Translations under genes and position numbers: made by a program
Origin: Azolla caroliniana
Lineage: Eukaryota; Plantae; Polypodiophyta
NCBI GenBank assembly: GCA_043228905.1
Contig: JBHGNT010000002.1
Coordinates: 7,006,001 to 7,070,000, forward strand
Direction of reading: 5' to 3'
DNA: 64,000 bases
In this document: positions 28,556-64,000 of the stretch, one piece after another
Layout: the number at the start of each line of letters is the position of its first letter
Numbering within the stretch: the first letter of the stretch is position 1
The notes under the pieces: model-generated
What the model was told of the DNA's origin: nothing
The model's database searches: none
The model's input: the letters and a program-made list of their open reading frames with translations, nothing else

Positions 28556-31500
28556 GGCCCAACATCGTATTCAGGTGTTGACCGACCACAAGAATCTCAT
28601 CTACTTTACCACCACTTGTACGTTGAATCAGAGGAAAGCTTGCTGGTCATCTTTTCTCGCCGACTACGACTTCGAAATCTTGTTTTGACCCGACGTTCAA
28701 CATGGGAAAGTGGATGCTCTCTCTCGGCGACCTGACTTTGCGCCACACCCAAGTCACAACGCATATTCTCAACAACCGCATTGTTTATTGTAGCCCAATA
28801 AACTCCACATGTTCGCAACCTATATGTTGCATGATGATTCCTTGCTCAACGAGATCACCCAAGCAACCACGTCAGACCCTTTCGCTACTAATGTCAGAAC
28901 CAAGGATAAAAGATAGAGTGATGGAAGAAGGATATTAGAGAACACAAGAAGAAAGGAACCAAATACTAAGAGAAGAATGGATGTATAAGATAGAGAAAGA
29001 AAGAGAATGGATACAAGATATGTAATGAGAGCTAAAGACTGGTGTTGATTCGAATTGATTTGAGAATACATGTATGCCCTTATTTATAGGTTCCTATAGA
29101 ATAGCTTAGATATGTAATGAGAGCTAAAGACTGGTGTTGATTCGAATTGATTTGAGAATACATGTATGCCCTTATTTATAGGTTCCTATAGAACCAAGGA
29201 TAAAAGATAGAGTGATGGAAGAAGGATATTAGAGAACACATGAAGAAAGGAACCAAATACTAAGAGAAGAATGGATGTATAAGATAGAGAGAGAAAGAGA
29301 ATGGATACAAGATATGTAATGAGAGCTAAAGACTGGTGTTGATTAGAATTGATTTGAGAATACATGTATGACCTTATTTATAGGTTCCTATAGAATAGCT
29401 TAGAGATTTCTAGAATGTTCTAGACCTAGAATGCTCTAGGACATTCTAGAATAATCTAGAGTTTTTACAATAATCAATGTAATACAAAAAGTAGTGTTTA
29501 TTGTTTCATATAACAATAAGCTATCTTAATGGTTGAGGTTTTCAAGTATGGATTACAAGGTTCAAGTCTGGGTGATGCCATAATGGTCATGTGTTCATGA
29601 CACTATCCCTCCTTCGAGAATGCCGAGTGGAAGTCGACGTTAACATTGTTGGGTCGGGCTTGTTTGGATAGTGACGATGGAAGTCGTTGACCAGAGCTTC
29701 AGCATTACAAACGTTATCGATGGGTTCCCAAGTGCAATCACTTGGAGGATAGCCAAGCCAATCAACTAGATAATAAAGCTTATTGCGCACAATCTTAGAA
29801 TCGAGAATAGCAGCTACCTCGTATTTGGGGTCGTCCACAAGTTGTACAGAAGGTGGTGGTGGCACGACAGACACTATTAGGAATTAAAGAGGTGCGGCAA
29901 GGTTCCAAAAGAGAGCTATGAAAGACAGGGTGAAGCCGCATATGTGCAGGAAGGTTAAGACGAAATGTTGCATCATTAATCTGCGCCGTGATGACAAAAG
30001 GACCTAAGCGTTGATAGTCAAACTTAGCACACGGTCGGGTAGTCTTGATGTGACGACGAAGCAACCATACATGGTCACCAACCTTAAACGGAGACTTAAG
30101 ACGATGTCGATTGGCATTGGTCTTATGGTGTGCTTGCGCTTTCTGAAGATGTGACGATAACTCGAACTGGATTTGTTGTAGTCGGTGGAGGTGATGCGCC
30201 GCACTAGGGTTTCGTGACACCTCGGGAAGATCCAGTATACACCATCGAGGGTGGTTGCCGGTGTAGGCAAAGAAAGGTGTAACTTTGGTAGAAGAGTGGA
30301 CCGTGTTGTTGTATGCAAACTTGACAAGATGTAAAATATTACTCCAATCATCTTGTTGATAACTAATGAAACATTGAAGATATTGCTCGAGCGTTTGATT
30401 TGTGCGCTCTGTTTGTCCGTCAGTTTGTGGATGATAAGCCGAAGAGAGTTTGCAAGAGATTTTGAGGCCTGCCCATAGGTGCTTCCAAAAGTGTGAGATA
30501 AATTGAGGACCTCGATCCCTAATAATATCATTCGGGAGACCATGATGGCGAAACACTTCACGCATAATGAGATCTACAGTTTCTTCACTATTGATGGTCT
30601 TTACACATGGTACAAAATGTGTCATCTTGGTGAACCGATCCACTACTATTAAAATAGTATCAAAGCCTTTGGAAGGTGGTAGATCCGTAATGAAATCCAT
30701 AGAAATAGACTGCCATGGCTTGTTGGGAGGGGGTAATGGTTGTAGTATGCCATAAGGGTGATGCCGGGGTATTTTGGCACAACAGCAAGTGTCACAAGTG
30801 CAAACATAATCTTCGACAAAAATTTTGCAAGTGAGGCCACCAAAATGAACGTTTCACCAGCTCAATGGTCTTGGAAATACCAAAATGTCCAGCCATGGGG
30901 GCATCATGACAATGTTCCAACACTTGAAGTCGGAGTGATCCGTCGAGGACGTAAAGGAGATTCTTGTAGAAGAGTAAGCCATCTTTCCACTTGAAGTCCT
31001 GATAATGTTGAGATTACCCTGGCAATGTGGAGCAAGATGGACGACTTGAACCACAGTGGGCTAAGACATCCTTAGCAAAATCATCCGAATGAAGTTGTTG
31101 CCGAATAGTGTCAAGAAGGGTAGAATCAAGTGGCGTGGCATAAATTGTTGTTACCTGTAGCTTTGATGGCCCGAGGAGAGTTTGCTTTTGATTGTCAAAG
31201 GTCAGATCTCCAGGTCGAAGTGCTAGATACGAACGCCGAGACAAAGCATCCGCTTTCCCTTGTTGTTTTCCGGGGCGAAAAATGATCTTGAAATCGAAAC
31301 GCATTAGAAATTGGGCCCACCGAGCTTGTCGTCTATTTAATACTCGAGCTGTTTGAAAATTTGTGAGATTTTTGTGACCACTATAAATGATAATCTGATG
31401 AGGTGATCCTTCTAGAAAATTACGCCATTGCTTGAATGAGTCGACCACATCTAGTAACTCCTTGTCATGCACCTCATAGTTTATCTCCGAAACAGTAAAT

Positions 31501-33932
31501 TTTCTCGAGTGAAACGCAACTGGATGTGTCTGCCCGTCCTCGCCTTGTTGTGATAGGATACTCCCCAATGCAAAGTCTGATGCATCCGCCTCAATAGTAA
31601 ATGGCTTTTCAGGATCAATATGTGCTAGGATGGGTGCTGATGTGAATGCCTCTTTCAGCTGCGTAAAAGCCTTGTCCGCTTCGATACTCCAAAAAAATGC
31701 TTGATTTTTCTTGGTGAGTTGAGTAAGGGGCAACACAATGCTTGAATAATTATGTATGAATTTGCGATAGAAGTTCGCAAATCCGAGGAAACACTGGACA
31801 TCCCGAACTGAGCATGGGGGTTTCCATTCCAATATTGTTTGGACTTTTGCCGGGTCCATGAAAACACCCTGGGATGAAATAGTGTATCCCAAAAATTGGA
31901 CTTGTTTGCAATCAAAACTGCATTTCTCAAGTTTGGCATAAAGACCATACTTCCTTAGGCGTTCAAGTACTTGCCGCACATGTATATCATGCTCCCCCTG
32001 TGTTTTAGAGTAAATCAATAGATCATCTAGGTAGATGATTAGAAAAACATCCAAGAAATCCCGGAAGATGTCATTTGCCATATGTTGGAATACTGCAAGT
32101 GCATTTGTGAGCCTGAAAGGCATGACTGTATACTCGAAATGACCATACCGAGTACGAAATGTTGTTTTCCACTCATCTCCCGGCCGAATTCGAACAAGAT
32201 TATATGCACCCCTTAGATCAATTTTGGTAAAATGCTTTGCCCCACCAATGCGTTCTAAGAGATTGGAGATTAAAGGTAAAGCATACCTATTCCTTATGGT
32301 GACTTTATTTAAGCCTCAATAGTCCACGACCAAACGAAGGGAATCGTCCTTTTTCTTCACAAAAAAGATAGGAGCACCAGCTGGAGACTTTAAATGTCGA
32401 ATAAACCCATGTGCAAGATTTTCCTCGATGTATTCTCGAAGAATCTCAAGCTCAGTGGGTGATAAATTGTAAATCGGACCCCACGGTGGCTCTTTTCCTG
32501 GTTGGAGATCAATAGGACAGTCGTACGGCCGATGCTTTGGAAGAACACTAGCTTTGACTTTGTCGAAAACATCAGCATAGTCTTGATATTTTTTGGGAAT
32601 TTGGATGTCTGAATTCCCTTGAGTGACACTAGAAGGTGTCATTGATACTGCAAATAAGAAAAGGTCATCCTTGCCTCCCACTTGGTGCAATTGTTGCAAT
32701 GTGATGGCTGAAATTTGATGAGAAGGATATGGTGCATCGGTAGAACTATATACTTTAGGAGGATAATCCCGAGTTCGATCCTTGACAATGATATTTTCTA
32801 TTAAAGGGCACCTAATTTCTCGCTTCCTCCAATCAATTCTAGGGTTGTGTAGCTCGAACCATGGCAAACCGAGGACAATTGGATGCTCAGGACTACGGAT
32901 TATGTTAAAGGAAACTACACATCCTAAATCACCCAAGAGTATGTGTATTGGCTCAGACTCTTCAAATATCTTCCCGGAAGCTATGGGGCGTCCATCAATC
33001 ACTACTATGAAAACTGGACAAGGAAGTGTATGCAAGGATATTTGGTGTTTTTGGGCAAAATCTCTATCCATGAAACAAGAATTGGCTCCAGTATCTAAGA
33101 GGGCTTGGACTTGAAGTTGACAACTGGGTGTCCTAACTTGTACTAGGGCTCAGAAGACTCTACTAACATGCTTGGAAGAAATGGAACCCACACTAGGTTG
33201 TACATATCTAGGGTTGTCCAACCAAATGGCTCCTATTTTGGCCGGACTTATTTGTTTGACTCCTCTTCTAATTGGCTTAGGACTTCAAATTTATTGGACA
33301 AGGGTGGATTATTCATAATACTAGATTCACTAACTACTTCTAAAATGTTGGACTCATTTTTATTGTCATAGTGAATTTGATTTACCTAACATCTCGACCT
33401 ATGGGAGCAATGAATGGCTATATGTCCTGGACCTCCGCAATATAAGCACAGATGGTTTGCTCGATGACGTTGCTTCTCTTCGTCTGACAACAGTCCTCGT
33501 CGTTGAGTCATATCGATCTCCATGGGTTCAGGACTATCCATTGGGACTGGACTACGTGTTTGCCTTGGAGTTGGACCAGGGCTATACATTTGCCTTGGGG
33601 ATGATTGCACCGTTACTGATGCATAAGCTGGTGTGAATCTTGATCTTGTTATTTGTTGTTGTTGTCGGGAACTCAACGCTCCCTATACGCAATGCTCGGC
33701 CACAACCGAGCTTAGGATCATACACAGAAAACGGGAAATAAAACACGACAAGAAGAAGAGGGAGATACACAGGAGGTTTACGTGGAAAACCCCAAACTAG
33801 GGGAAAAACCATGGCAGCCCACAGGCTGCAAACTGTCACTATGTAAGAATATACAACTGTGAGTTCACTGAGGCACCGACCTCATGCTCACAGATCTTCG
33901 CCACAAGCGGCGGTTACAACAGAGGCAACGAC

Positions 33933-33969
<37 letters not shown>

Positions 33970-34389
33970 CAGTTACACACACTCACTCTTTTCTTGCACC
34001 AACAAGAAATGAACAACTACTACACCACTTATTTGCCCTAAGTCATATTTATACTAATATGACTTTTTGGCTATTTACAAATATAGCCTCGATGGGCTCT
34101 CAGAAACATATTTACGAATATGTCTCTTCCTCCGGTTCTCACCGGGTCTGTGTCATCTGGCTCTCCGTAGCCGGGTGCTCCTCATCCGGTTCTTCACCGG
34201 GTCTGTATCATCCGGCTCTCCGTAGCTGGGTACTCCTCATCCGGTTCATACCAGGTCTGCACCATCCGGCTCTCCGTAGCCGGGTACTCCTCATTCGGTT
34301 TCGGCCTCGGCCGAGTTTGTTCATTGGCATTGTTCTTCTCCCTTCCCATCCAGAGGGACTTGTCTCCCAACAAACTCCCCCTTCACTCC

Positions 34390-37300
34390 GGCATGGGGTG
34401 TCTTACCAGTCCAATTCTCTTCCGGCATGCATCCAGCTTGTCGGGTATCAGCACTTTGGTCAGCATATCTGACCCGTTCTCGGCCGTGTGGATCTTCATC
34501 AGCGCGAACTCCTGGTCATCTACTCTTTCCCGGATCTAGTGACACCTCCGCTGGATATGCTTCGTCCGGGAATGGTAGGCTGCATTCTTAGCAAGGTGGA
34601 TGGCACTTTGACTGTCGCAATAGAGTCGGTATTCATCTTGCCGGATACCGAGCTCTCCGATGAAGTCCTTCATCCATAATATTTCCTTGCCGGCTTCCAT
34701 AGCCGCCATGTACTCCGCCTCTGTGGTTGACAATGCAACCGTCTTCTGCAGCCTCGACTGCCATGAAACGGCTCCCCCTGCATATGTCATTACATACCCG
34801 GATGTAAACCGGCTGGTATCCACATCAGTCGACATGTCCGAATCGGTGAAACCGTCAAGTTGAGGTTTTCCGGAGCCGAATCGGAGACACATATTTGAAG
34901 TTCCCTTCAAATACCGGAGTATACATTTGACCGCGTTCCAGTGCTCCTTGCCGGGGTTGCTCATAAACCGGCTCACCACTCCGACTGTGTATCCAATGTC
35001 CGGTTGGGTACAAACCATTGCGTACATCAAGCTCCCGACGGCAGAGGCATATGGTATCTTCATCATATCCGCCTTCTCTGCTTTCGTCTTCAGGCTTTGC
35101 TTACCGGATAGCTTGCAGTTTGCCAGAAGTGTCGATCCGACCGGTTTCGCATCTGACATGTTGAACCGGTGAAGCACCTTTGTCACGTACTTCTCCTGTG
35201 ACAGCCATAATTGCTTCTTTGACCGGTCCCGAATGATGTGCATCCCCAGCATCTGTCTTGCCGGACCCAAGTCTTTCATTGAGAAGGTCCGGTTGAGAGC
35301 CTTCTTCAGCATCCGTATTTTTACTTGGTCTCGTCCGACGATGAACATGTCATCCACGTACAGGAGGAGTATCAAGAAGTCGCCTCCTTCGAACTTCTTC
35401 ACAAACACGCAGTGATCGGCCTGCGTCTTGTGGTACCCTTGATCGGTCATGAAGGAATCGAACTTCTGGTACCATTGTCGGGGAGCCTGCTTTAGTCCGT
35501 ACAGGCTCTTCTTCAGCCGGCATACCAGGTGCTCCTTCCCTTTCTCCACAAATCCTTCCGGTTGCTGCATGTAGATCTCCTCTTCGAGGTCGCCATGAAG
35601 GAATGTCGTCTTCACGTCCAGCTGCTCTACCTCAAGGTCCATGCTTGCCGCTATACTCAGCACCGTCCGGATGGAGGTCATCTTTACTACCGGGGAAAAT
35701 ATCTCGTCGAAGTCCACGCCCTTCTTCTGCTGGAACCCCTTCACCACAATCCTGGCTTTGTATCTCGGGGGGTTTCCGGCATCTCCCGGTTTCAACTTGT
35801 ACACCCACTTGTTTCGGAGTGCCCGCTTTCCTTTCGGCAACTCCACCAATTCGTACGTATGGTTCTCATGCAGGGAATCCATCTCGTCCTGCATAGCACT
35901 TAACCATTTTCGGTTGTGGGTGTCATCCTTCGCTTCTTTGAAGCTTTCCGGCTCCCCCTCATCGGTTAGCAAAACATGCTCTGCATCCGGAAATCTCCGG
36001 GGGGCCCTTCTCTCTCTGAGAGGATATCTCCGTCTTTGGGCTTCGGTAGCCGGCTCCTCCATTTGCTCTTCATCCGAATCCGATTCGGGGTCTAGGCCGG
36101 TTCCGGTCTCAGCTTCCTCTACTTCTTCTTCTGCCGGTTCGGTATCCTCACCGTACCCGGCTGGTTCTTCGAGTGCTAACCGGTCTCTCGCCAGTTGGGT
36201 CTGCTCATCGTAGAGTCGATCCTTGCCGGTCGACTCGGAGTTCATTATCTTCTTCTCCGACTCCCAGTCGGCGAGCGTCTTGTCCTCCATGAAGATAATA
36301 TCTCGACTCCGGAATACCTTCTTGTCGACCGGGTCCCACACTCGGTAGCTGAACTCCTCGTCACCGTAACCGAGGAATATGCATGGCCGGGTTTTTGCAT
36401 CTAACTTTCCTCTCCAATCCTTTGCTACATGCACGTACGCGAGACACCCGAACACCTTCAGATGCCGGTAGGAGACTTCCTTACCGGTCCATACTCTCTG
36501 TGGCGTGTCTCCATCCAAGGGTACTAAGGGTGATCTATTTATCACATATGTCGTCGTCGACAGTGCCTCAGCCCAAAACTTCTTGGGTAGTTTTGCATGC
36601 GCTAGCATACTCCGGACCCTCTCCATTATGGTCCGGTTCATCCTCTCGGCCAGTCCATTTAGTTCCGGCGTCTTCGGCACGGTAAATTCGAGCCGTATTC
36701 CCTTTGAGCGGCAGTACTCCTCGAACTGCCCCGGTACTCTCCTCCGTTATCTGCTCAGACCGCCTTCAACTTCCGGCCGGTTTCTCTTTCCACTCTCACG
36801 TGGAGCTCTTTGAAGACGGATAACACCTGATCCTTCGTCTTCAACGGTGTGGCCCACAGTTTCCGACTGTGGTCATCTATGAACGTCACGAAGTACTGCG
36901 CTCCGGCATGTGACTTCGTGTCTACTTCACACACATCCGTATGCACCAACTCCAGTGGTGCATTACGTCTCATCGGTGGCCTTGGTCGGAAGGAGGTCCA
37001 GTTCTGGTTACCGGCCAGACAATCAGTGCACTTCTCTAAGTGCATGTTCTTCACTGGAATGAGGTTGTCGTCTGCAAGCCTCTTCATCCCCTTCTCGCTC
37101 ATATGACACGGCCTCTTGTGCCACAGCTCACCGGCAGTGTCGGATGCCACGTTCACTTCTTCCGGGCATAACCGGGCATTCATCAGGTACAATGTGTTTA
37201 CCTTCCGGGCCCGAGCCACAATCAGGCTCCCTTTGCTGAACTTCATGACACCGTTCCGGATGCTACCCGTGTAGCCCTCATCATCTAGCGGACCGGCTGA

Positions 37301-38428
37301 TATCAAGTTCAGTCGAACCTCCGGAACGTGTCGGACATCCCTTAGCAGCAACTTGCATCCGGTTGGTGTTGTCAGCCACACGTCTCCTATGCCGACAATT
37401 CGGCATGTACCTTCATTCCCCATCCGGACACAACCGTGATCACCGGCTGAGTAGGATGAGAAGCATTTCCGGTCCGGGGTAAGGTGGAACGACGCTCCGG
37501 AGTTTACCACCCAGGTCATCTCGTCGCCGGCAAGGTTTATCTCACTCTCCTCGGTGATGAGCATCAACTCTTCTTCACTTGCCGCGATTGCCGTCGTCCC
37601 CTTCCGGTCCGGCCCCCTCCGGTCTTTACCGTTCCGGTCCGGGGTCCGCTTCGAATCGGTACCATCGGTCTCCTTATCTTTTCGGAAATGCCGACAGTTC
37701 TTTTGGAAGTGTCCCGGCTTGCCGCAATAGAAGCAAGTAGGCCTCCCCCTTGACTTTGACCGTGTCCCCGACTTCTCCCGGTTCTGGGCACTACGGTTTC
37801 TATGTCTTCTGCGTTCCGATTCGGTAAGGAGCGCTTTGGAGTCGGAGCTCGTATCCTTATCTTTCTGACGCACCTCCTCATCCAGCAAGCTCGATTTCAC
37901 TCTTGCTAGGGATAACCGTTTTCCTTCCGGCCCGGTGTTGCCCAAAGTGACGACCAACGTCTCCCAACTATCCGGGAGGGAACCGAGCAGGAGTAGTGCT
38001 AGTACCTCGTCGGCGAGAGGTACTTCCAATGATGTTGCCTGGTGTATCAGCCCCTAGAAGGCATTCATGTGCTCCGCCATGTTGGAGCCATCTTGGTACC
38101 GGAGTCTTACTAGCTTCCGGAATACCGAAACCTGATTAACAACATTTTTGTTCTGAAACATTATGTCGATCTTCTCCCAGAGCTCATGAGCCTTGCTCTC
38201 TTCATTGAAGTTGTTGTACAGGCTCATGTCGATGAAGCACCGTATGTACGCCGTTGTCTTCATGTGCATCACCTCCCATATCGTGGCGTCCATTTTGTCT
38301 GGTCTCTTGTCCCCGAACTGAACCAGCAGCCAGAGATCTTTAACCACGAGCATGTCCCTCATCTTCGACTTCCACACTGAATAGTTGGAGCCGGTGAGCT
38401 TGAACATGCCGCCAAACGATTCGTCCAT
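34390..38428 (-). pseudogene. Copia Gag-Pol of K with premature stops and a frameshift
   Basis: CFYCGKPGHFQKNC, HTDVC, YVDD and TKHIQRR motifs. Stops at 38054 and 34536, frame change near 36740. Confidence 0.9.
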
Positions 38429-38920
38429 TTTTTGTGTCGATTTTGCTCTGATACCACTTGTTGGGAACTCAACACTCCCTATACGCAATGCTCGGCCACA
38501 ACCGAGCTTAGGATCATACACAAAAAACAGGAAATAAAACACGACAAGAAGAAGAGGGAGATACACAGGAGGTTTACGTGGAAAACCCCAAACTAGGGGA
38601 AAAACCACGGGAACCCACAGGCTGCAAACTGTCACTATGTAAGAATATACAACCGTGAGTTCACTGAGGCACCGACCTTGTGCTCACAGATCTTCGCCAT
38701 AGGCGGCGGTTACAACAGAGGCAACGACCTCTTTCTCTCTCTCTCTCTCTCTCTCTGTACAGTTACACACACACTCTCTTTTCTTGCACCAACAAGAAAT
38801 GAACAACTACTACACCACATATTTTCCCTAAGTCATATTTATACTAATATGACTTTTCGGCTATTTACAAATATAGCCTCAGTGGGCTCTCAGAAACATA
38901 TTTACGAATATGTCTCTTCC

Positions 38921-39195
38921 TCCGATTCTCACCGGGTCTGCGTCATCCGGCTCTCCGTAGCCGGGTGCTCCTCATCCAGTTCTTCACCGAGTCTGTATCA
39001 TCCGGCTCTCCGTAGCTGGGTACTCCTCATCCGGTTCACACCGGGTCTGCACCATCCGGCTCTCCGTAGCCGGGTACTCCTCATCCGGTTCACACCGGGT
39101 CTGCATCATCCGGCTCTCCGTAACCGGGTACTCCTCATCCGGTTCACACCGGGCCTGCACCATCCGGCTCTCCGTAGCCGGGTACTCCTCATCCG
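38921..39195. repeat. 54-bp tandem repeat in the K LTR (about 5 units here, about 3 units at 34131-34297)
   Basis: Unit CCGGTTCACACCGGGTCTGCACCATCCGGCTCTCCGTAGCCGGGTACTCCTCAT. Confidence 0.88.
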
Positions 39196-40038
39196 GTTTC
39201 GGCCTCGGCCAAGTTTGTTCATCGGCACTGTTCTTCTCCCTTCCCATCCGGAGGGACTTGTCTCCCAACAGTTGTCGCTCACATCAACGCTCAAAAAGGC
39301 GCTTGTCACACCGCATTGCTCGACTAATAGCTTCTATAAGTGACCTTGGATCCTCGGGGAAGGTAAGAAGTAAGTCTTTGACATCACTACGAAGGCCTGA
39401 ACGGAATTGCTCCATTAGGGCTTGTTCATCCCAAGGAATATCGCTTGTGATGAGACGGAAATTGGCAGCATATGTCGAAGCTGGTTGATCACCTTGACGA
39501 AGTGTACAAATCTTGTTGATAGTTGTTCTCGCCCCATCAGTATCTCCGAAACAAGCCTTAAATTCCTCGAAATTATTCAGTAGAGGAGAATTGGTCTCTA
39601 GCAATGGAGCAAACCACGACAACGCTATGTCAATCAATAAGGTGCCCACTAGCCCGACTCGTGATGCATCTGTTGGATAACGTGCGGGATGCACTTGAAA
39701 CACCAACCGTACTTGATTCAAAAAACCTCGGAAATGCGCCCTCGACCCATAAAATTTAGCTGGGAGGCTAATTTTGGGCTCCTTGATAAGTCCCTAACCT
39801 TCAACCCTTTGTTGTTGTAACACTATGATTGTTGACTCTAATTGTTGCACTCGTCATGTGAACTCCTCTTGTTGTTGTTGCTTCTCTATAGTGTAACCTT
39901 TTGTAGATCCCCAAGTAGACGTTGATTCTCTACTTCATGAGATGCGAACTTGGATTTAAGGTTCTCCATTTCTGCAACAAGGGTGAGATATTCTTCTGAG
40001 TTAATGGCAGCCATGGTTTCAGGATGGTTACAAAGGAG

Positions 40039-40041
<3 letters not shown>

Positions 40042-40078
<37 letters not shown>
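40042..40078. repeat. (GA)n microsatellite in the leader of H, adjoining the PBS
   Basis: Read directly from the sequence. Confidence 0.9.
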
Positions 40079-40083
<5 letters not shown>

Positions 40084-40090
40084 GAATCAA
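40079..40090 (-). promoter_or_regulatory. Self-priming PBS of H
   Basis: Minus-strand TTGATTCGAATT is complementary to AATTCGAATCAA in the LTR (plus-strand 40246-40257). Confidence 0.8.
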
Positions 40091-41972
40091 ACTGTCAGAA
40101 CCAAGGATAAAAGATAGAGTGATGGAAGAAGGATATTAGAGAACACGAGAAGAAAGGAACCAAATACTAAGAGAAGAATGGATGTATAAGATAGAGAAAG
40201 AAAGAGAACGGATACAAGATATGTAATGAGAGCTAAAGATTGGTGTTGATTCGAATTTATTTGAGAATACATGTATGCCCTTATTTATAGGTTCCTATAG
40301 AATAGCTATGAGATTTCTAGAATGTTCTAGAATGTTCTAGACCTAGAATGCTCTAGGACATTCTAGAACATTCTAGAATAATCTAGAGTTTTTACAATAA
40401 TCAATGTAATACAAGAAGTAGCGTTTATTGTTTTATATAACAATAAGCTATCTTAATGGTTGAGGTTTTCAAGTATGGATTACAAGGTTCGAGGTTCAAG
40501 TCCGGGTGACGCCATAATGGTCATGTGTTCATGACAACTGACATCATGACGTGCCTCAACAACCCATCCCATGAAATGCAAAACTCGAGTCTCAATCACT
40601 TTACAACTCAGGATGGGCTACTCTATCGTAATCACCTCCTTTATGTACTAGCTGGCACATGTCGCATCCGAGTCCTACAAACTTGCCACGATGATCCTCT
40701 TATCGGACGCTTTGGGGTCACAAAAACATTGGCGTTGCTGTCTCTGGGGTTTTGGTGGCCCCAACCTTGGAGATTGGTCAAAGAATTTATCAAAACTTGT
40801 GACGTCTGTGCTCGCTCCAAAGCGGCTCACCATCGTCCATACGACCTTGTACACCCACTTGCAATTCCCATTCGACCTTGGGCATCTCTCTCCATGGACT
40901 TTATCACCAACCTTCCTTAGGTCGGTGACCATGAAACGGTGGTAGTGGTCGTCGATCGGTTTTTGAAGATGGCTCACTTTGTCCCATGTTCGAAAACCAT
41001 TTCGAGGGAGGAAACGGCTGACCTTTTTCTGAAAAATGTCATCTGATTACATAACTTCCCTAAGGATGTCACTTCTAATCGAGGTCCTCAATTTATCTCC
41101 CACTTCTGGCACCGACTTCTACAGACATTCAGGATTTCTATGAACGTGTCAACCGCACACCACCCTCAAACTGATGGCCAAACCGAAAGAGTCAACCAAA
41201 TCCTTAAACAATACCTCTGGTGTACAGTCAGCTACCAACAAGACGATTGGGTGGACTTCCTTGCCATGGCGGAATTTTCCTACAATAATAGTATCCATGC
41301 CTCAAATAAGGTTTCCCCATTCTTTGCAAACTACGGTTTCCATCCTCGTTTCAACATTTCCATTCCGTAAATTTCCGTCAATCCGTCGGTCGAGAGGCAT
41401 GCCCACACCTTACAAGATGTCCATCGTGACCTCTCCCTCAAGCTCCGTGCCGTTGGCAAACAATATAAAGCTCACGCTGACTGACATCGCTTGGTCGCGC
41501 CAACCTTCGTAGTCGGTGACATGGTTTGGCTGCTACGTCGCCACATCACAACCACCCGTCCCTGCGCGAAGCTCGATTACAAAAAGCTAGGCCCCTTCCG
41601 TATCCTTGAGCGCATTAACCAAGTCGCCTTCCGGTTAGCGCTTCCCCCCACATTTCGGCTTCACAATATTTTCCACGTCTCTCTCCTCAAACTCTACCAT
41701 CCTTCTCGTATTCCGGAACAACAACCTCCTCCGCCGCCGACCGTGGAATTATCAACAAGTGAGGAGTACGAGGTTGACCGGATCCTCGACTCCCACTTGT
41801 GTCGACGAAAACTTCAATACTTGGTCTTATGGAAAGGTTACCCTCTTTCGGACACCACATGGGAACCAGTTACACATTTACAAAATGCGTCGGAGGCAAT
41901 TCGCGCTTTTCATCAACGATACCCTCATAAACTGGTCACAGGTGTTGCGAGGCGGCCTCAGAGGGAGGATAA

Positions 41973-42389
41973 TGTCATAAACATATGCCACAGAAGAAGG
42001 TAGGGATTGAACCCAAAACCTCACGGTCTCTCTTAGGCAACCCTACCAATTAAGCTACATATGCATCCTTATATTAAATCCAACTTCATGTAATGTAGAT
42101 TGAACATTGTAAGTTCCTAGCTTGCATGCATCCTCATTTCTAGCTTGCACACATTCTCATGCATTCTCTATTGCATGCATCCTCATGCATTCTCTATTTT
42201 TGCATGCATACTCTATTTCTAGCTGGCTTACATAGCCCTACCTTCTTGTATAAATACTCAGGTGCATCTTGATTCTAATCAAGGTGAACAACACCAGTTA
42301 TGGATTCTATAAGTTGAGTTCTTGTTCTTTTCCTCTCTCTTATTTTCTAGTCTTGTCTTTGTTCTGCTCTATTATACTTGTCTGTGACA
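41973..42389 (+). repeat. 3' LTR of F
   Basis: TGTCAT...GTGACA, TATAAATA at 42249. Its 3' part matches 17911-18017. Confidence 0.9.
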
Positions 42390-44994
42390 GATAAGGTACA
42401 CAATAGTATCATGGAACTCCTTCTTAGCGATCCCAAGTAGTTCTCTCAAGGTAAGGTTGACATGACTGTCTAAAACCTTCTCCTCAAGGACCTTCCGCAA
42501 GTCAGTTCTTTGTCCGACGTGAGCTTGTAAGTCGGCGCCTCTCATTCTTTTCCTTTCTTCCATTAGAGTAGGTTTGCTCGATCCACCAGGTTTCATGCTT
42601 GTTTCTCCAACCTCTTTTCGTGGCATAAGTTGGGCTTGCCCTTCTTTCCTTGTGTTCCTCGTGTTGGGACACTTTGATTTGCCATCTTCTTCACCAGCTC
42701 TTTTCCTCTTCTCTTTGACAAGAGCTTCATAGTTGTCGCACACAACCTCCGCAAAGCTTGTGTTATCGTTGTTGAGAATCAATCTCAACATAGTGCAACA
42801 TGTGAACATACCTTTTGAGAATCCATGATTATTCAAAGGTCAAGAGTCACACCACTACTCTCTACACATCAACTATGTGTCATAGAATCATATTCTATGA
42901 CACATAACTAATGAGTTACATATTCCGCATGACTATGAGTCTTCACATTCCCCAAGAGAGAGTGGTTGTTGTAGTTAGTTAATGAAGAGAGAGGGTGACT
43001 ATATATAAAGCACCCTCGTCATACTTCATAGAATGTCGGTTGTGACTCCTTGTAATGCTACATTTTTGTATCTCTTACTTTACTTGTGAATATACATCTT
43101 CTTCTTGAGTACTTCATTGTGTTCCCATTCTATCTAATCTATCTTGTGTTTCTCTTCTCTTCTCTCTTTCCTCTCACACATACACATAACACACATCTCT
43201 TCCGCTACACAAGAATCATACCCGATTCTTTACAATCATCGACTGGATCCGACCATCTAGTAACTCGTCGCACATTCCGATCAGCAAGTTTTAGATCCTC
43301 CAAATCGATTTTTCCTTTTTTCTTGCACTCAAAGACTGTCGGCCAAAACCCAGCTCCTCGCTTGATCGTTTTTAGATTCTCTCCTCCAACTCGTATCCCG
43401 GCCGATGCAGCATAGTGCATAGCTTCCACATGCCTTGCGTCATCCTCTTTCACAATCTTTTCCAGCCTGCCTCTTCCGAAGTTTACTTGTAGTGGCTTCT
43501 AGGTCTCGCTCGAGTGGATCATGTTGTCATCCAAATAGACGACGTTCTTGAAAATCGCATCTTGCAAGTCAGTGCACTCCCTTCGTGAGTGCTCCAAGCT
43601 GTCGCACCACACACATCTAAACACTTCTTTCCCTTGGGCCCGCGTCGAGCTAAGTTGGCTAGTGATACCGCTTCAAACTTCTTGGAGAGTTCTTCGATTA
43701 TAGATTCCTACATCGCTTTCTTGTCGAAATTGTTGATCGGCTTGCTAGGCTCGATCATCATAGGCACCTTCCTCCTCCACGATTGTGGATTCTCCACGTA
43801 AGTTTACTCTAGCCATTGTCGATGCTTATCAAGATGGCTACAAGCCATCTTTACCATCACCTAGTCCGCTACCAAGCCATTTGGTTGCATTTCATCTTCC
43901 AAAAGGTTGCCCAATTCTCACCGGTCTTTCGTATCCACCGTCTTCAGGAACAACAGGACTTTATCTCCATCGAGAACTCGTTGATCAACACTCGGAAGTC
44001 GGTTGTACTTCTGTTCAAAGAACATCTTCAAGCATGTATTCAGCAAGCAGTGTCTTTTCGAACTCCATCCAAGTTGTGTGCTCGTTTTGGATCTCCATGA
44101 CGCACTCGCGGATCCCTGGTTCCACCACACACTTAAAGCTAGAAATTTGTTTCAGATCATGGACATCCCTCTACTGCATCTTGTTCCGATAGTTAGCAAG
44201 GAAATCCGTGATGTTCTTGCCACCAAATCGTCCAGTTATCTCCATTGTTTGATTGACAACTTTGTCGACTAAAGTCTCCCGATCTCTCACCTTCAGCATG
44301 AATTCCACGACGGCCACCATGCCTTTCTTCAATTCCTCTCCTTGAGTTCCGCTTGTCGAAGTCATCGTCGCACTTGATATCCTCCTGCTGCCTCGTTTCA
44401 CGTCGGGTTCACCAAGAGAGATGTCGTTGAAATCCTCGCATGTTCGTGAAATGAAACGCAACCATCGGGGTCACAGACCTGAAGGATTCAATGTTTTTAG
44501 TAGCGTAAGCGAGAAAGTATTGAAGATAGATGGATGGATGGATGGAGAGAGAGCAAAAGAGAGAAAGACAAAGATTGAACCCTTGACTTTAGTTTTGCGA
44601 GACAAGATATATCACCAACAGGATAACTTTAGATCCTTTATTAGAAATTTCTTCCTTACATCACTTCCCCTTACACAAGCCCAACTAGAGGCTTTTATAG
44701 GTCTCTCCATGCAAAAACTATGGTTTTGCACACGGTTTTTTTTTATGTGTTTGTTTCCTATGAATTACTGAATATGAAAAGAAAATACATAAAGTTTGAA
44801 GTATATGATAGTAGTCCTCGTGGTAAATCAATTCTCTTCTAACTTGAAGGTACAAGGTTCAAATCTTGTTTCCACCCCTCTCTATATGCACTAGGCCCTA
44901 GGTTTATTTTTTATTTATTTACAAGTGTTTGTGTAATGTGCGCGGAACCACACTTTTTCACTTTTTCTCCTACTGGACACGCAACATCACGACA
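42390..44994 (-). mobile_element. Element E: 5' part of a divergent tRNA-Trp-primed gypsy-type element
   Basis: LTR 44422-44994 (TGTCG...CGACA) and perfect Trp PBS 44397-44414. Gag (GRFGGKNITDFLANY, CVWCDSLEHSRREC, LRKVLEEKVLDSHVNLTLRELLGIAKKEFHD) is homologous to A and G. Confidence 0.88.
42770..43234 (+). repeat. Solo LTR (termini like copia B) inserted in gag of E
   Basis: TGTTGAGA...CTTTACA with TSD ATCGT/ATCAT and TATATAAAG near 43002. Removing it restores WSDPVDDNTSFAEVVC. Confidence 0.85.
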
Positions 44995-49380: not shown

Positions 49381-50824
49381 TGTGCAATATGTTGTGTAAT
49401 TTATGGTGCTAGGTGACATTCCTCCCGCATGGAACAAGCAACTTTTGAGCTATGTATGTCACAACACGATCCGCAGACAACTTGTCAAGCCGAAGATCTA
49501 GAGTTTCTTTTCCTTTCTCGTCCCATCTCTAATTCCAATTCAAACTCCAATAATAGGATTGGTCCCTTGTCTTTTGCAAATTGCCAACTCTATCGTCGAT
49601 CTTCAATGTTGTTTCTACCACAGTCTTGAATGTTTTGTGGGAATGAGCTCCATAATACCCCCATGTTTTTTACAATTGTAAAAACCAAGCACAATGATTG
49701 GAAATGAATGATGTTTTATATTAAGCACTTTTTACCCATCATTGCAGTTATTTCCAATACTAGATAGCCCCTAGCATAAAAGGAAAAATGTAAAAAACTA
49801 GAGCAAACAAGGAGAGAGAAGGAGGGGGGGTATTAGCGAGAAATATTGTTTGTACGTCAAATCATTGTAATGTCCAAAGTAAAAGTTTGGTGGTCTGGTG
49901 TTCTTTTAACATGAAATCATCACGAGTGTCTTCCTTTTTATTGATGGAGACAGTAGAGTGGTCTAGGGAGATAGTGAAAAAGTGTGCATACGCATAGAAT
50001 TGAGAAGAGGATGGGCTATCCGTGTGACAAAACAATGACATAAAGGGCAATAAAACTTCTCTTATTAGCAAATATTTGGCCCACATAGAGTAGATTCTTT
50101 TCATTTAGAGTGCGATTTGCTACTTGGAAATTGTCAGGGATAATTTGTTATTAAACCTTGGTGGAATGTGGATGGGTGTGGACTTTGAACCATAGTAGAA
50201 ATCGAACCCCTAAAAGTGGAGAAAGGCTTAAGACATGAGCCCATGGACCATAGGTTCATTAAATGCAATGATAGCAGTCTAGTAGGTGGGCGAGAAACCA
50301 AAGTTTTGAAATTGAATGTAGATAAGACGACATACTAACAAAGTTATGGACTATGACACACATGGATTTGTTGCATATGGTGAAATTTGGAAGAATACAT
50401 GCACTCATGGTTCGAAAGAGACAAAGAATTACTACGCTTTATAGTCCTCAAAAACAAGTAGGAGCATGAGATACTAGTGAGAAAAGCACGATACAAATGT
50501 ATATAGACAAGTTACGGTTAGAGAGGTTGGTCAACAAACGCCGGTTAAAAGGGTGGTTGGGGAGGCCACATGGACATTAGAAGTGATGGGTAAAACTCTT
50601 AAAGCTTAAAGGTTGGATATACGGTGCTGAGAAAGGATGTGTATATGAAGATGATGTTTGCTATGTATGTATGTATGATATGTATTATGGTCAAAGAGTC
50701 TAAGAGCATGATAAAGATGATGAGAAAAACAGTATAAAATGGTTACCTCACCCTAGAGCCCCCTCTACCCTCCCATGTATATGCAATTTCAGTTGTCCTC
50801 CTAGATAGCTAAACAATATAAACC

Positions 50825-53003
50825 ATGACACTCTTCCTGCCGCCGCGTTCGACCAGCCTAGAGAACCCCAAATTCCCGGCCACACAAAGCCCCACCGAAT
50901 TCCCGACCATATACCAATGCGACACCGTTGACCCCGACGCAAACCGGGAGAAACAAACCGTGGTGTCCGGCTTGAACGGCACCCTCCTCCGATCCCGCTC
51001 GTCCTTCCCGTACTTCATGCTCCTCGCTTTCGAATCCCCATTGGGCTGGCTCCGGTTCCTCATCCTCCTGGTGCTCTCGCCACTCGTGTGGCTCCTAGAC
51101 ACTTGTGTCTCCGAGGGGGCATCCCTACGCCTCCTCGTGTTTGTGGCGTGCGCGGGCGTGCGTGTGGCGGACATAAGATCCGCGGCCCAAGCGGTGCTTC
51201 CCAAATTCTATGTCCAGGACGTGCATCCCGAGGCGTGGCGCGTTTTCTCGGCATTGGGGAGGCGGTATGTTCTTACATCGAGCCCACGCTTGATGGTGGA
51301 GCCCTTTGCACTACAATATTTGGGGGCTGACGGGGTGATCGGCACAGAGCTTCACATTTTGTCCAGGTTTGGGCATCGCGCATCGGGATTCGTGCTTCCA
51401 TCCCGATGTATGATCGGGGAGGATAAAGCGATCGCGCTCCGGCAGTATTTCTTGGACTCCTCCGAGGGTGCGGGCCATGAACACACTTCCGAGGATGTCC
51501 TTGTTGGACTAGGCAATGGACCCAATGACCACCCTTTCCTCTCCCTTTGCAAGGTATATGATCACCACGTCTTATCCTTCATTTTGGGTGTTAGACTCCA
51601 TTCCATGGTTTCCATCAAATTTTATTTATTTTTGTCATCATCTCCATTGAGGGGCATATTTGGAAATAATTAAAAAATTATCCAGTGGGCAAATTGGGTA
51701 ATTGTAGAAGCAAGTATGGCTAAACGATTGACCAATCACTTTTGTGAAAGACCCCATTGCTTTGTGGTCTAGGCATGGACCTAGGGTTTCATGGTATAAT
51801 AAGGGGGGGGGGAATTTTTGTAGTCAATAGCCGTCCAACAAGAGAACACAAGACCCTATGAACCGGGACCATAATAAATCATAGATATCCTAATTATATG
51901 CAACTTTGTCGTCATCCACGCCAATTTGATGGGTGATGTCAACTTATTACATTAACAACTCCTTATTACATTAACAATGTTTAAATATCTCTTTGTAACT
52001 ATGTTTTTTGTTACATTAGCATATGCTTTACCAAGATGTTACTTTTCTTTTGCTAAATTTTAAAATCAACTTTCGCATTGATTTATATCACTTTATTTCA
52101 TTTTGCTTGTAGGAGGGATACATTGTTCCTCGACTTCCTAAAATGGATGCATTACCTCCATCAAGACTTCCTAAAACCCTCATATTTCATGATGGAAGAT
52201 TAGTTAAGAAGCCCACAACATTATGTGCATTAATGACAATCCTATGGCTTCCTATAGGCTTTGTCTTGATGACACTAAGAATTATCATAGGACTCACTCT
52301 TCCAACGAGCATGTTATACTATGGCTATAAAGCCTTGGGAATACGGATTATTGTAAAAGGCACACCACCTATTTCCATGAAGGACAAAAAGAGGCACGGT
52401 GTGCTATTCGTGTGCACACATAGAACATTAATAGATCCTTTAATTGTATCATGTGTTGTTAGAAAGCCGGTTATTGCATTGACCTACTCATTGTCGCGAC
52501 TAACTGAGGTCTTCTCTCCAATACCAACAATGCGGTTGACACGAAATAGGGAGAAAGATGCATTGACTATTTGCAATCTACTAAAGCAGGGAGATTTAAC
52601 GATTTGTCCAGAAGGGACAACATGTAGGGAACCCTTCTTGTTAAGGTTTAGCTCCCTATTTGCAGAATTAACTGATCATATCATCCCTGTTGCTATTAAT
52701 TGCCATGTGGGAATGTTCAATGCTACCTCAGCAAGAGGGTGGAAAGGACTAGATAGCTTTTACTTCTTTTTGAACCCAAGCCCAATCTATGAAATCACAT
52801 TCCTTAACAACTTACCCCAAGAGCTCACATGTGCTGGTGGAAAATCCCCTAACGAGGTTGCCAATTATATCCAACGTACACTTGGAGCCACCCTCAACTT
52901 TGAATGTACAAACTTGACACGCAAGGATAAATATTTGACACTAGTAGGCCATGATGGAAGTGTTTCATTTGACCAAAAATATTCTAAATATACTATAAAT
53001 TGA
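50825..53003 (+). CDS. GPAT: Land-plant sn-2 glycerol-3-phosphate acyltransferase (GPAT1-8/RAM2 family), join(50825..51553,52113..53003), 539 aa
   Basis: N-terminal HAD-like domain ([22 protein letters not shown]) and PlsC motifs HRTLIDP and [16 protein letters not shown], plus TRKDKY. A phase-0 GT-AG intron falls at the family-typical CK|EGY position and both exons are in frame. Confidence 0.95.
51554..52112 (+). other. GPAT intron
   Basis: AAG|GTATAT donor and T-rich TTGCTTGTAG|GAG acceptor. Confidence 0.9.
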
Positions 53004-62641: not shown

Positions 62642-64000
62642 TGTCATAGACACGATGGAATGTAAGGGGTTGAACCCATGACCTCTTGGTCTTATTGGGA
62701 AACCTTACCAATTGAGCTACATTCCATCTATGCATTAAGTTTCAACTTATTACATTGTAAGTTAATCACTAGAACTTTCAAGAAACTTTTAGAGAATGCA
62801 TAGACATGCACTCTCTAGAAGTTTCCATGCATTCTCTAGATCTTTCCTAGCTTACATGCATACCACCACATTCTTGTATAAATACTTTGGTGCACCTTGA
62901 TTACAATCAAGGTGAACAACACCAGTTACGGAAGCATAATTTAGTTCTCGCTCTTTTGTCTAGCCTCTCTCTCTCTTGTTCTCTTCTCTATGCTCCTCTC
63001 TATTTATATATCTATCTTTCTCTCTTTCTTAATATTGAGCTCGCCTACTTGTCCTTGCCCTCGTCTACGTCTGTGACAATTTGTTCACCTTGCCTTCTTG
63101 TTACCATGTCTAACTCGGCCTTAAACCAAGTAATGGCAGCCTTGGAGCAACTTCGATTATAAAATGAAAGCCTTCGTCAGTCTTGTCATCCGCCTCTATT
63201 GTGGTACCCCCGGCCATGTCATCCGCCACTGCTCGATGCGAAGCCCTCGTCATCAATCCCACCATGCACATCTTGCAGAGGTTTCTCGACAACAAGAAAA
63301 CGATCGTGCACGTCTTGCGGAGGTTTCTAGACAACAGGAAAACAAGAAAGTCCAGCTGCAATAGGAGCCATGCCGCTGGACACTTTCTGTCGCCCTAGTT
63401 CTTCATGCTCCTACAATTCAGTCACGCTAGCAGGAGGTTTTACTTTGCAAGTAAGTCTTTTTTTTGGGTCTATTTCAATAAAATCCCATGCCTTCCTCGA
63501 TTCTGGTGCATCTACTTGTTTCATCGATATCGCGTTCGTCCGAGCACATAAAATCCCAACCTTCTGCACAACACAACCCATATCCGTTGAAGCTATCCAC
63601 GGACGGGTTCTCTCTTCAGGGGCGGTTACCGAAGCCACTGTCTCGTTGGTATTTCAAGTTGGGTTCCACCAGGAGGTATTAACATTCTACCTCATTGCAA
63701 CCCCTCGTCATCCGATTGTTTTAGGGCTCTCCTGGTTGGAAACACACAATCCGATGGTGGATTGGTGTAGCCGCTCCATCACTTTTCCACAAACACCAGC
63801 GCAGGCCCTTTCCACAAACATTGTTACTTGTGGGGGGGTTGTTTTCAGCTTGGGTGCACATTCTTCTGATTTCAACTCACCCTTCGACGTTGCCGATTCC
63901 GTTCTGGCCGATTCTAGCGTGGTCACTTCCGTGCCCGTTGTGTCACAGGACGTCCCTACTCCTGTCACCAATTTGCTCGCAAGATATAGCGATTTTTTGG
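62642..64000 (+). mobile_element. Element I: 5' end of a self-priming chromovirus related to F, with most of gag deleted
   Basis: LTR 62642-63078. PBS TTGTTCACCTTG (63081-63092) is complementary to 62908-62919. The gag start at 63106 joins directly to the knuckle LYCGTPGHVIRHC. Protease FLDSGAS near 63495. Confidence 0.88.

Follow-up and report, generated by a model that had tools for sequence, protein, structure and literature searches.

Backward tRNA-like A and B boxes at the U3 edge of Tcn1-type LTR retrotransposons in Azolla caroliniana

Element H and its antisense module

The 64,000-nucleotide stretch of Azolla caroliniana DNA analyzed here (the window) is a nest of LTR retrotransposons, amid which lies a host glycerol-3-phosphate acyltransferase (RAM2/GPAT-like) gene at 50822-53003; the assembly surveyed comprises 523 Mb, with 22 large contigs. 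Element H (28892-40536, minus strand; Table 1) is a self-priming Tcn1-type Ty3/gypsy element, with the Ty3/gypsy domain order and a C-terminal chromodomain in Pfam comparisons of the window frames, and with chromodomain sequence found in H copies. Its coding region is interrupted by stops and split by a copia insertion (about 33662-39270), and its flanks, ACTAA and ACTGA, match as a target-site duplication at four of five positions. The sequence immediately to the right of H (40537-41972) is the integrase-chromodomain end of a family I1 element, so that the insertion target of H was itself a Tcn1-type element. The 3′ LTR of H contains tandem R-U5 duplications at 28892-29400 that include the TATA box and self-primer, and in the U3 of the 5′ LTR a palindromic TCTAGAA repeat array (40316-40377) lies between the tRNA-like module described below and the TATA box; an Rfam miRNA match to this array is spurious.

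A self-priming primer-binding site (PBS) is present in all five families tested, with the self-primer 32 to 33 nt after the TATA box and a complement of 11 to 12 nt in each, although the sequences themselves differ. Members of the Tcn1 clade in mosses and clubmosses are self-priming in this way (PMC6317226), and in gypsy domain order, SH3 domain and chromodomain, self-priming PBS, 5-bp duplication, and an LTR of ~440 nt, the elements here resemble the Tcn1 chromoviruses as the available portions of two papers describe them (PMC6317226, PMC2864245). The same portions make no mention of tRNA-like boxes in the LTRs.

Table 1. Features of element H and positions of tRNA-like modules in the window
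Feature	Position	Strand	Remarks
3′ LTR of H	28892-29602	-	Internal duplications
Second H module copy	29515-29580	+	22.4 bits; 7-nt deletion ahead of B box
H coding region	29795-39793	-	gag 39284-39793; protease, RT, RNase H, integrase, SH3 29795-33149
Self-priming PBS	40079-40090	-	Lacks complementarity to tRNA 3′ end
5′ LTR of H	40093-40536	-	444 nt, TG...CA, U3 edge 40536; 40 or more copies at 97-98% in the genome
Predicted RNA 5′ end (self-primer)	40246-40257	-	32 nt past TATA start; 12-nt PBS complement
TATA box of predicted Pol II promoter	40284-40289	-	LTR position 248
tRNA-derived module, antisense to H	40442-40514	+	tRNA positions 1-73; 26.7 bits
A box	40449-40459	+	tRNA positions 8-19; present in 67/69 H copies
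T4 run between boxes	40466-40469	+	Possible Pol III stop; nearly H-specific
AGGT(C/T), variable-loop-like	40485-40489	+	tRNA positions 44-48; 4-5/5 identical in all 28 family pairs
B box	40493-40503	+	tRNA positions 52-62; core in 61/69 H copies, strict form in 52/69
CCA	40512-40514	+	tRNA positions 71-73, not the tRNA 3′ CCA (74-76)
Antisense module, family I1 3′ LTR (LTR 41973-42389, element +)	41992-42064	-	29.9 bits
Antisense module in U3 of unrelated Arg-lineage gypsy LTR (44422-44994, element -)	44805-44877	+	17.9 bits
Antisense module, family I2 5′ LTR (LTR 62642-63078)	62655-62726	-	28.8 bits; acceptor-like stem kept

Within the 5′ LTR of H, and antisense to it, an A box (TATCTTAATGG), a variable loop, and a B box (GGTTCAAGTCC), as read from the window sequence, span 40449-40503 with exact tRNA spacing. 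They fall without gaps onto tRNA numbering, with AGGTT as the variable-loop pentamer, and an apparent tandem GGTTCGA-GGTTCAA is the variable loop followed by the T arm. The initial annotation had the bases and orientation of both boxes right, but started the A box 2 nt too early, at 40447; its 45 nt between the boxes holds as a start-to-start distance (44 to 45 nt), whereas the actual gap is 31 nt. It also correctly placed a CCA end at 40514, 22 nt inside the U3 boundary at 40536. The letters are present, but do not constitute a functional 3′ end: positions 74-76 read TAA, the CCA at 71-73 is unpaired and is missing from most other families, and many tRNA genes read CCA at these same positions.

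The A/B-box profile used to score modules came exclusively from nuclear tRNA genes of the host (five isotypes, a partial set). The H module has the A and B boxes at tRNA spacing of a type 2 Pol III promoter; its score compares with 17.6 to 36.2 bits for the host tRNA genes themselves, and exceeds those of 300/300 dinucleotide shuffles (z, 6.1). Shuffled genome sequence yields 53 matches of at least 17 bits per 1.17 million strand-bases. On both strands of the window, the top four A/B pairs with this host-tRNA profile are the four Tcn1-type LTR modules (22.4 to 29.9 bits), and eight other window LTRs score -6 to 7 bits over their first 120 nt. As had been proposed, the two I-type LTRs carry the same antisense module (with minus-strand B boxes at 42013 and at 62676), and outside it there is little or no alignment between the H and I LTRs.

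The spacing between G19 and G53 is 35 in H, compared with 33 to 34 in the host tRNA genes used. In a non-random sample of 69 H copies, chosen by likeness to the window's LTR or integrase, 67 were measurable, with a spacing of 35 in 65, 28 in one, and 36 in one. The copy with a 7-nt deletion, previously placed at 29520-29580, is borne out at 29522-29580, the loss having occurred between GGTTCGA-type repeats of the variable loop and T arm. The opposite reading, a 7-nt duplication in the copy at 40447, is rejected because the long spacing is that of 65/67 copies.

The module is not a tRNA gene. In H, the acceptor stem pairs at 1/7 positions (0/7 Watson-Crick), the D stem at 3/4, the anticodon stem at 3/5, and the T stem at 3/5. 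ARAGORN finds no tRNA in the H module and Rfam matches nothing there, and an Rfam scan of the whole window is likewise without a tRNA match. Scanned by itself, the I2 module (62655-62726) gives a sub-threshold one (22 bits against a cut-off of 29). The I2 module retains an acceptor stem and has no anticodon stem. Since H lacks an acceptor stem and its module folds no better than shuffled sequence (z, +1.09), it is the DNA sequence that is kept and not the RNA shape. Neither is it a free tRNA-derived SINE, because the module is within the LTR in all copies seen, with no tail or target-site duplication around it, nor a primer or PBS partner, as the PBS pairs with the start of R instead. The match that 13 copies have within the RT coding frame arises by chance in H-type pol.

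Distribution among families and lineages

Families of Tcn1-type elements were collected through integrase plus chromodomain, independently of the module, and grouped by LTR. The highest-scoring box pair runs antisense in all 11 sampled families, and its B box lies 16 to 46 nt from the U3 edge. Seven families (H, H2, M1, M2, I1, I2, and I3) have strong modules of 17 to 32 bits (p = 0.003) with a complete A box and tRNA spacing, and four (K, O, J, and N) have weak modules of about 10 bits (p = 0.013 to 0.040). The conserved columns of an unguided alignment are the boxes and the terminal TGACA. Only worn boxes are present in family N, for which about 40 copies were found, and in L185, an element nested in family O, the module is deleted.

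The module remnants in K, O, and J consist mainly of AGGTC-N3-GTTCGAATC, often forming the loop of a small hairpin close to the end of the LTR. Such remnants would suit motifs that are now sites for another host factor or for integrase and whose likeness to Pol III boxes is merely inherited; we consider this most improbable, because the distance of the B box from the edge is variable where that of an integrase site would be fixed, and because seven families keep the full A box at tRNA spacing.

Exact matches of 11 to 16 nt to host tRNA genes occur in H, H2, M, and I, and raise the question of whether it is the sense RNA that matters, with U3 annealing to a host tRNA at its D and T loops to aid dimerization or strand transfer. 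HIV-1 has a tRNA-Lys3-like sequence in U3-R; it is tRNA-primed and matches its own primer tRNA. A precedent for annealing, which predicts exactly the antisense orientation, is the bipartite primer-binding site of Ty3, in which U3 RNA is complementary to tRNA arms; however, Ty3 is tRNA-primed and matches its own primer, as described in the available part of PMC5371799, whereas the Tcn1 elements here use no tRNA primer. With self-primed elements, a design given in the accessible part of PMC6317226, there would be no primer tRNA to bridge. The best-matching isotype also changes from family to family (within a partial tRNA set), and a sense module such as that of the lineage described below cannot anneal. 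Annealing is thus a very unlikely basis for the boxes.

An integrase tree contains two firm clades, M+H+H2 (support 100/99) and O+N+K+J+I (100/98), the joining of which is unsupported either way in the 58-row tree; a larger 116-row tree was run in quick mode, and both were built without named Tcn1 reference sequences. One old gain of the module followed by losses, or two gains, may each be the history, and both fit the tree.

The initial annotation described the module as clade-wide, and this does not stand. The outside set comprised 97 metagenome and viral loci, in which the LTR start was placed for part only and some starts are uncertain, and a viral collection gave 17 relatives, all distant. 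Two outside loci, L181 and L182, fall into families M and K and have the module. Among the 35 other outside LTR clusters, none has an antisense module of at least 15 bits, and four reach 10 to 15 bits, so that weak outside modules are possible. The nearest outside relatives (L183, L184, and L186) are without it, and in the sequence record available with PMC2864245 no such boxes are seen by eye in the U3 of Selaginella SM-Tcn1, whose SH3-chromodomain and PBS are, also by eye, close to those of H. Given these absences and the L185 deletion, the module is neither clade-wide nor essential. The initial annotation had also proposed a scan of LTR starts against shuffled controls; the strand and position bias that it looked for is present in every sampled family of this genome, with H above all of its shuffles, but does not extend to the outside clusters at 15 bits or more. 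We note that in SM-Tcn1, as in H, the sequence following the 5′ LTR appears on visual inspection to be complementary to one lying ~30 nt past a TATA-like run; the available text of PMC2864245 reports no sign of self-priming in this element. A distant chromovirus relative (L205:4169, a metagenome contig, and L243) has a sense A/B pair just inside U3, at 21.7 bits.

A scan of 1.37 Mb of genome sequence located tRNA-like modules in a second gypsy lineage, with RT, RNase H, integrase, and DUF4100, no chromodomain match, and a PBS, TGGTGAACCCGAC, that differs from those of the Tcn1 families and which we take to be of tRNA-Arg type (hence Arg lineage; loci L391-L424). The module is therefore not specific to the Tcn1 clade. 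One young Arg-lineage family has two antisense modules upstream of the TATA box and one sense module downstream in 19/19 copies (22 to 28 bits); in a sister family, 15/15 copies have an antisense module and 14/15 a sense module. All of these modules point away from the TATA box, and the antisense ones sit 200 to 360 nt inside U3. Modules are present in 3/11 Arg-lineage clusters, the remaining families being without. The lineage includes the window LTR at 44422-44994; the LTR of L393 is about 1.1 kb, and the sister family carries its antisense unit as a tandem repeat.

No module of at least 17 bits was found in tRNA-Met-primed LTRs (0/19 clusters, up to three members each, three of the clusters with less than 100 nt scanned). 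Worn tRNA-like modules are abundant in other repeats of the genome, and two of these repeats (L066:1393, plus strand; L068:1681, minus strand) have sense modules ~80 to 100 nt before a TATA-like box. The genome also contains tandem tRNA arrays for Lys(TTT), Ile(TAT), Arg(TCT), and Thr(TGT) (G000: C5 ~17.99 Mb, C2 ~20.11 Mb, C11 ~0.69 Mb, C3 ~21.5 Mb), and the Lys array holds anticodon-changed copies.

Conservation of the boxes

Anchoring positions were dropped from the comparison of modules between families, 10 of 14 'invariant' positions having been forced by anchoring. At the unanchored box and loop positions, H and M1 agree at 14/17, versus 14/44 in the rest of the module, and H and I1 give the same figures (p = 4.5e-4); for I1 and I2 the counts are 15/17 and 19/44. 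The excess in the boxes is not significant for M1 and M2 (p = 0.32) or for H and K (p = 0.065), and among copies of the young H family the boxes show no greater constancy than the remaining LTR. Beyond the module, little or nothing can be aligned between the LTRs of these families. Conservation of the variable-loop pentamer equals that of the boxes, although a plain A/B promoter has no need of it. At the level of sequence, selection has likely preserved the boxes, and it is from this conservation that the module would be functional, as the initial annotation had it.

The module likely originated by capture of a SINE or tRNA, and one alternative to selection is that a tRNA-SINE or tRNA gene, captured once long ago or several times, has left it behind as an inert relic. 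Such an origin would suit a genome rich in worn modules, agrees with the tolerated loss in L185 and decay in N, and gains from the unsupported sisterhood of the two module-bearing clades. Moreover, H modules are as similar to those of the Arg lineage (13-14/17 box positions alike) as to those of related families, and box likeness alone may thus stem from any tRNA source. Two observations argue against inertness: within the M, H, and H2 clade, LTRs and spacers are near chance (14/44) while the boxes are still tRNA-like in score, and separate captures are not expected to agree in strand and place in 11/11 families. A relic is therefore rather improbable. The same regularities argue against a one-off chance SINE insertion, as the initial annotation had claimed, but leave SINE or tRNA capture as the likely source.

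A second alternative is that the boxes are a working Pol III promoter, with the 3′ LTR giving rise to an antisense, SINE-like RNA that covers the polypurine tract and the end of the chromodomain and limits or tunes copying. The A box is kept as well as the B box and at tRNA spacing, families I, J, K, and M have T4 runs 36 to 120 nt past the LTR edge, an acceptor-like stem is retained in I2, and foamy viruses make Pol III RNAs from LTR A/B boxes (PMC3993851, seen in the part available). Like the modules here, the foamy virus miRNA cassettes place an A/B-box Pol III unit in the LTR of an autonomous Pol II-driven element; they differ in encoding hairpin miRNAs with their own terminator, neither of which is conserved here, where the spacing is tRNA-shaped (same source). 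One conserved RNA product is argued against by the T4 runs: 34/35 two-box H copies have T4 between the boxes (0 to 1 copies in any other family), although an internal T4 occurs in host tRNA-Lys genes as well, and families differ more than tenfold in how far past the LTR edge the first T4 lies, from about 36 to 42 nt (K and M) through 87 nt (I and J) to 420 to 860 nt (H). The Arg-lineage modules, with their antisense copies deep inside U3 and a third one in sense, are also at odds with such a product. We regard a functional antisense Pol III transcript as unlikely.

A predicted TFIIIC dock and its relation to known systems

The boxes cannot drive the element RNA, because this starts ~200 nt further in and runs in the opposite direction, and with the TATA box and self-primer both separate, the module is not needed as promoter or primer. 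Because the boxes are kept, the product is not, and the placement around a Pol II promoter is repeated, a TFIIIC dock is the simplest account. We propose, with a probability of about one half and from sequence comparison, that the module is a decayed backward tRNA-gene sequence whose selected A and B boxes would dock TFIIIC and guard the Pol II promoter of the element at the DNA level. A tRNA gene or tRNA-SINE would have been captured backwards into the first 95 bases of U3, where the cloverleaf decayed while purifying selection would have held the A and B boxes, to which host TFIIIC is predicted to bind. The complex would, at the 5′ LTR, separate the adjoining chromatin from the TATA box ~200 nt further in, with Pol III aimed outwards; at the 3′ LTR, it would aim Pol III into the polypurine tract and the chromodomain coding end. 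The dock is predicted to act on chromatin as a barrier, in the manner of tRNA genes and extra-TFIIIC sites.

Barrier activity is established for tRNA genes and for TFIIIC sites in yeast and mammals, and at tDNA barriers and extra-TFIIIC (ETC/COC) sites the A and B boxes are DNA-level docks for TFIIIC beside Pol II promoters. Both are experimentally shown elements of host chromosomes, whereas the role here is predicted, and for a mobile element in a plant. Counting against a dock, the module is dispensable in some lineages (deleted in L185, worn in N, and absent from L183, L184, L186, and SM-Tcn1), and the ~10 bits of K, O, J, and N are also reached by 4/35 outside clusters. The Arg-lineage modules allow a broader and more tentative proposal, possible but on balance doubtful: two unrelated lineages would independently have domesticated tRNA promoters as portable barriers, with outward boxes recruiting TFIIIC and keeping the element transcribable in heterochromatin.

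The nearest described elements are the Helenus and TRIMp3 TRIMs (PMC10886601), which are non-coding, 311 to 1263 bp, and tRNA-primed, and for which the boxes were proposed as the promoter of the element. In the part of that paper available, Kojima (2024) states that the autonomous partners 'must use' Pol II promoters and that 'not a few' Repbase LTRs contain tRNA-like sequence, only the TRIMs being pursued there. As described in that part, Helenus is like the present modules in having tRNA-derived LTR sequence that is conserved at A and B boxes inside the LTR, with a non-functional cloverleaf and a probable SINE-into-LTR origin. In contrast, the present elements are not short non-coding ones of less than about 1.3 kb, but 5 to 7 kb and gag-pol coding, with LTR pairs about 4.9 to 6.9 kb apart. 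They also differ from the Helenus of that account in having a TATA box, self-priming, and boxes facing away from the element RNA; these antisense boxes at the U3 edge do not drive the replicating RNA, the start of which is set by the TATA box and self-primer.

In the openly available full-text literature searched, conserved antisense tRNA boxes are nowhere described for the LTRs of autonomous plant elements. Although tRNA boxes in LTRs are already known from Helenus, backward tRNA boxes at the U3 edge of coding elements appear to be new relative to that literature. With them, the TRIMp3 idea comes to include coding elements besides tiny non-coding ones, the orientation here excluding use as the element's own promoter, and they bear on how retrotransposons in silent chromatin keep active promoters. 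tRNA-type boxes have apparently been little tested as barriers in plants so far; with hundreds of natural copies in one genome and two unrelated lineages, with boxes intact, deleted, or worn, both the promoter and the barrier questions are directly testable.
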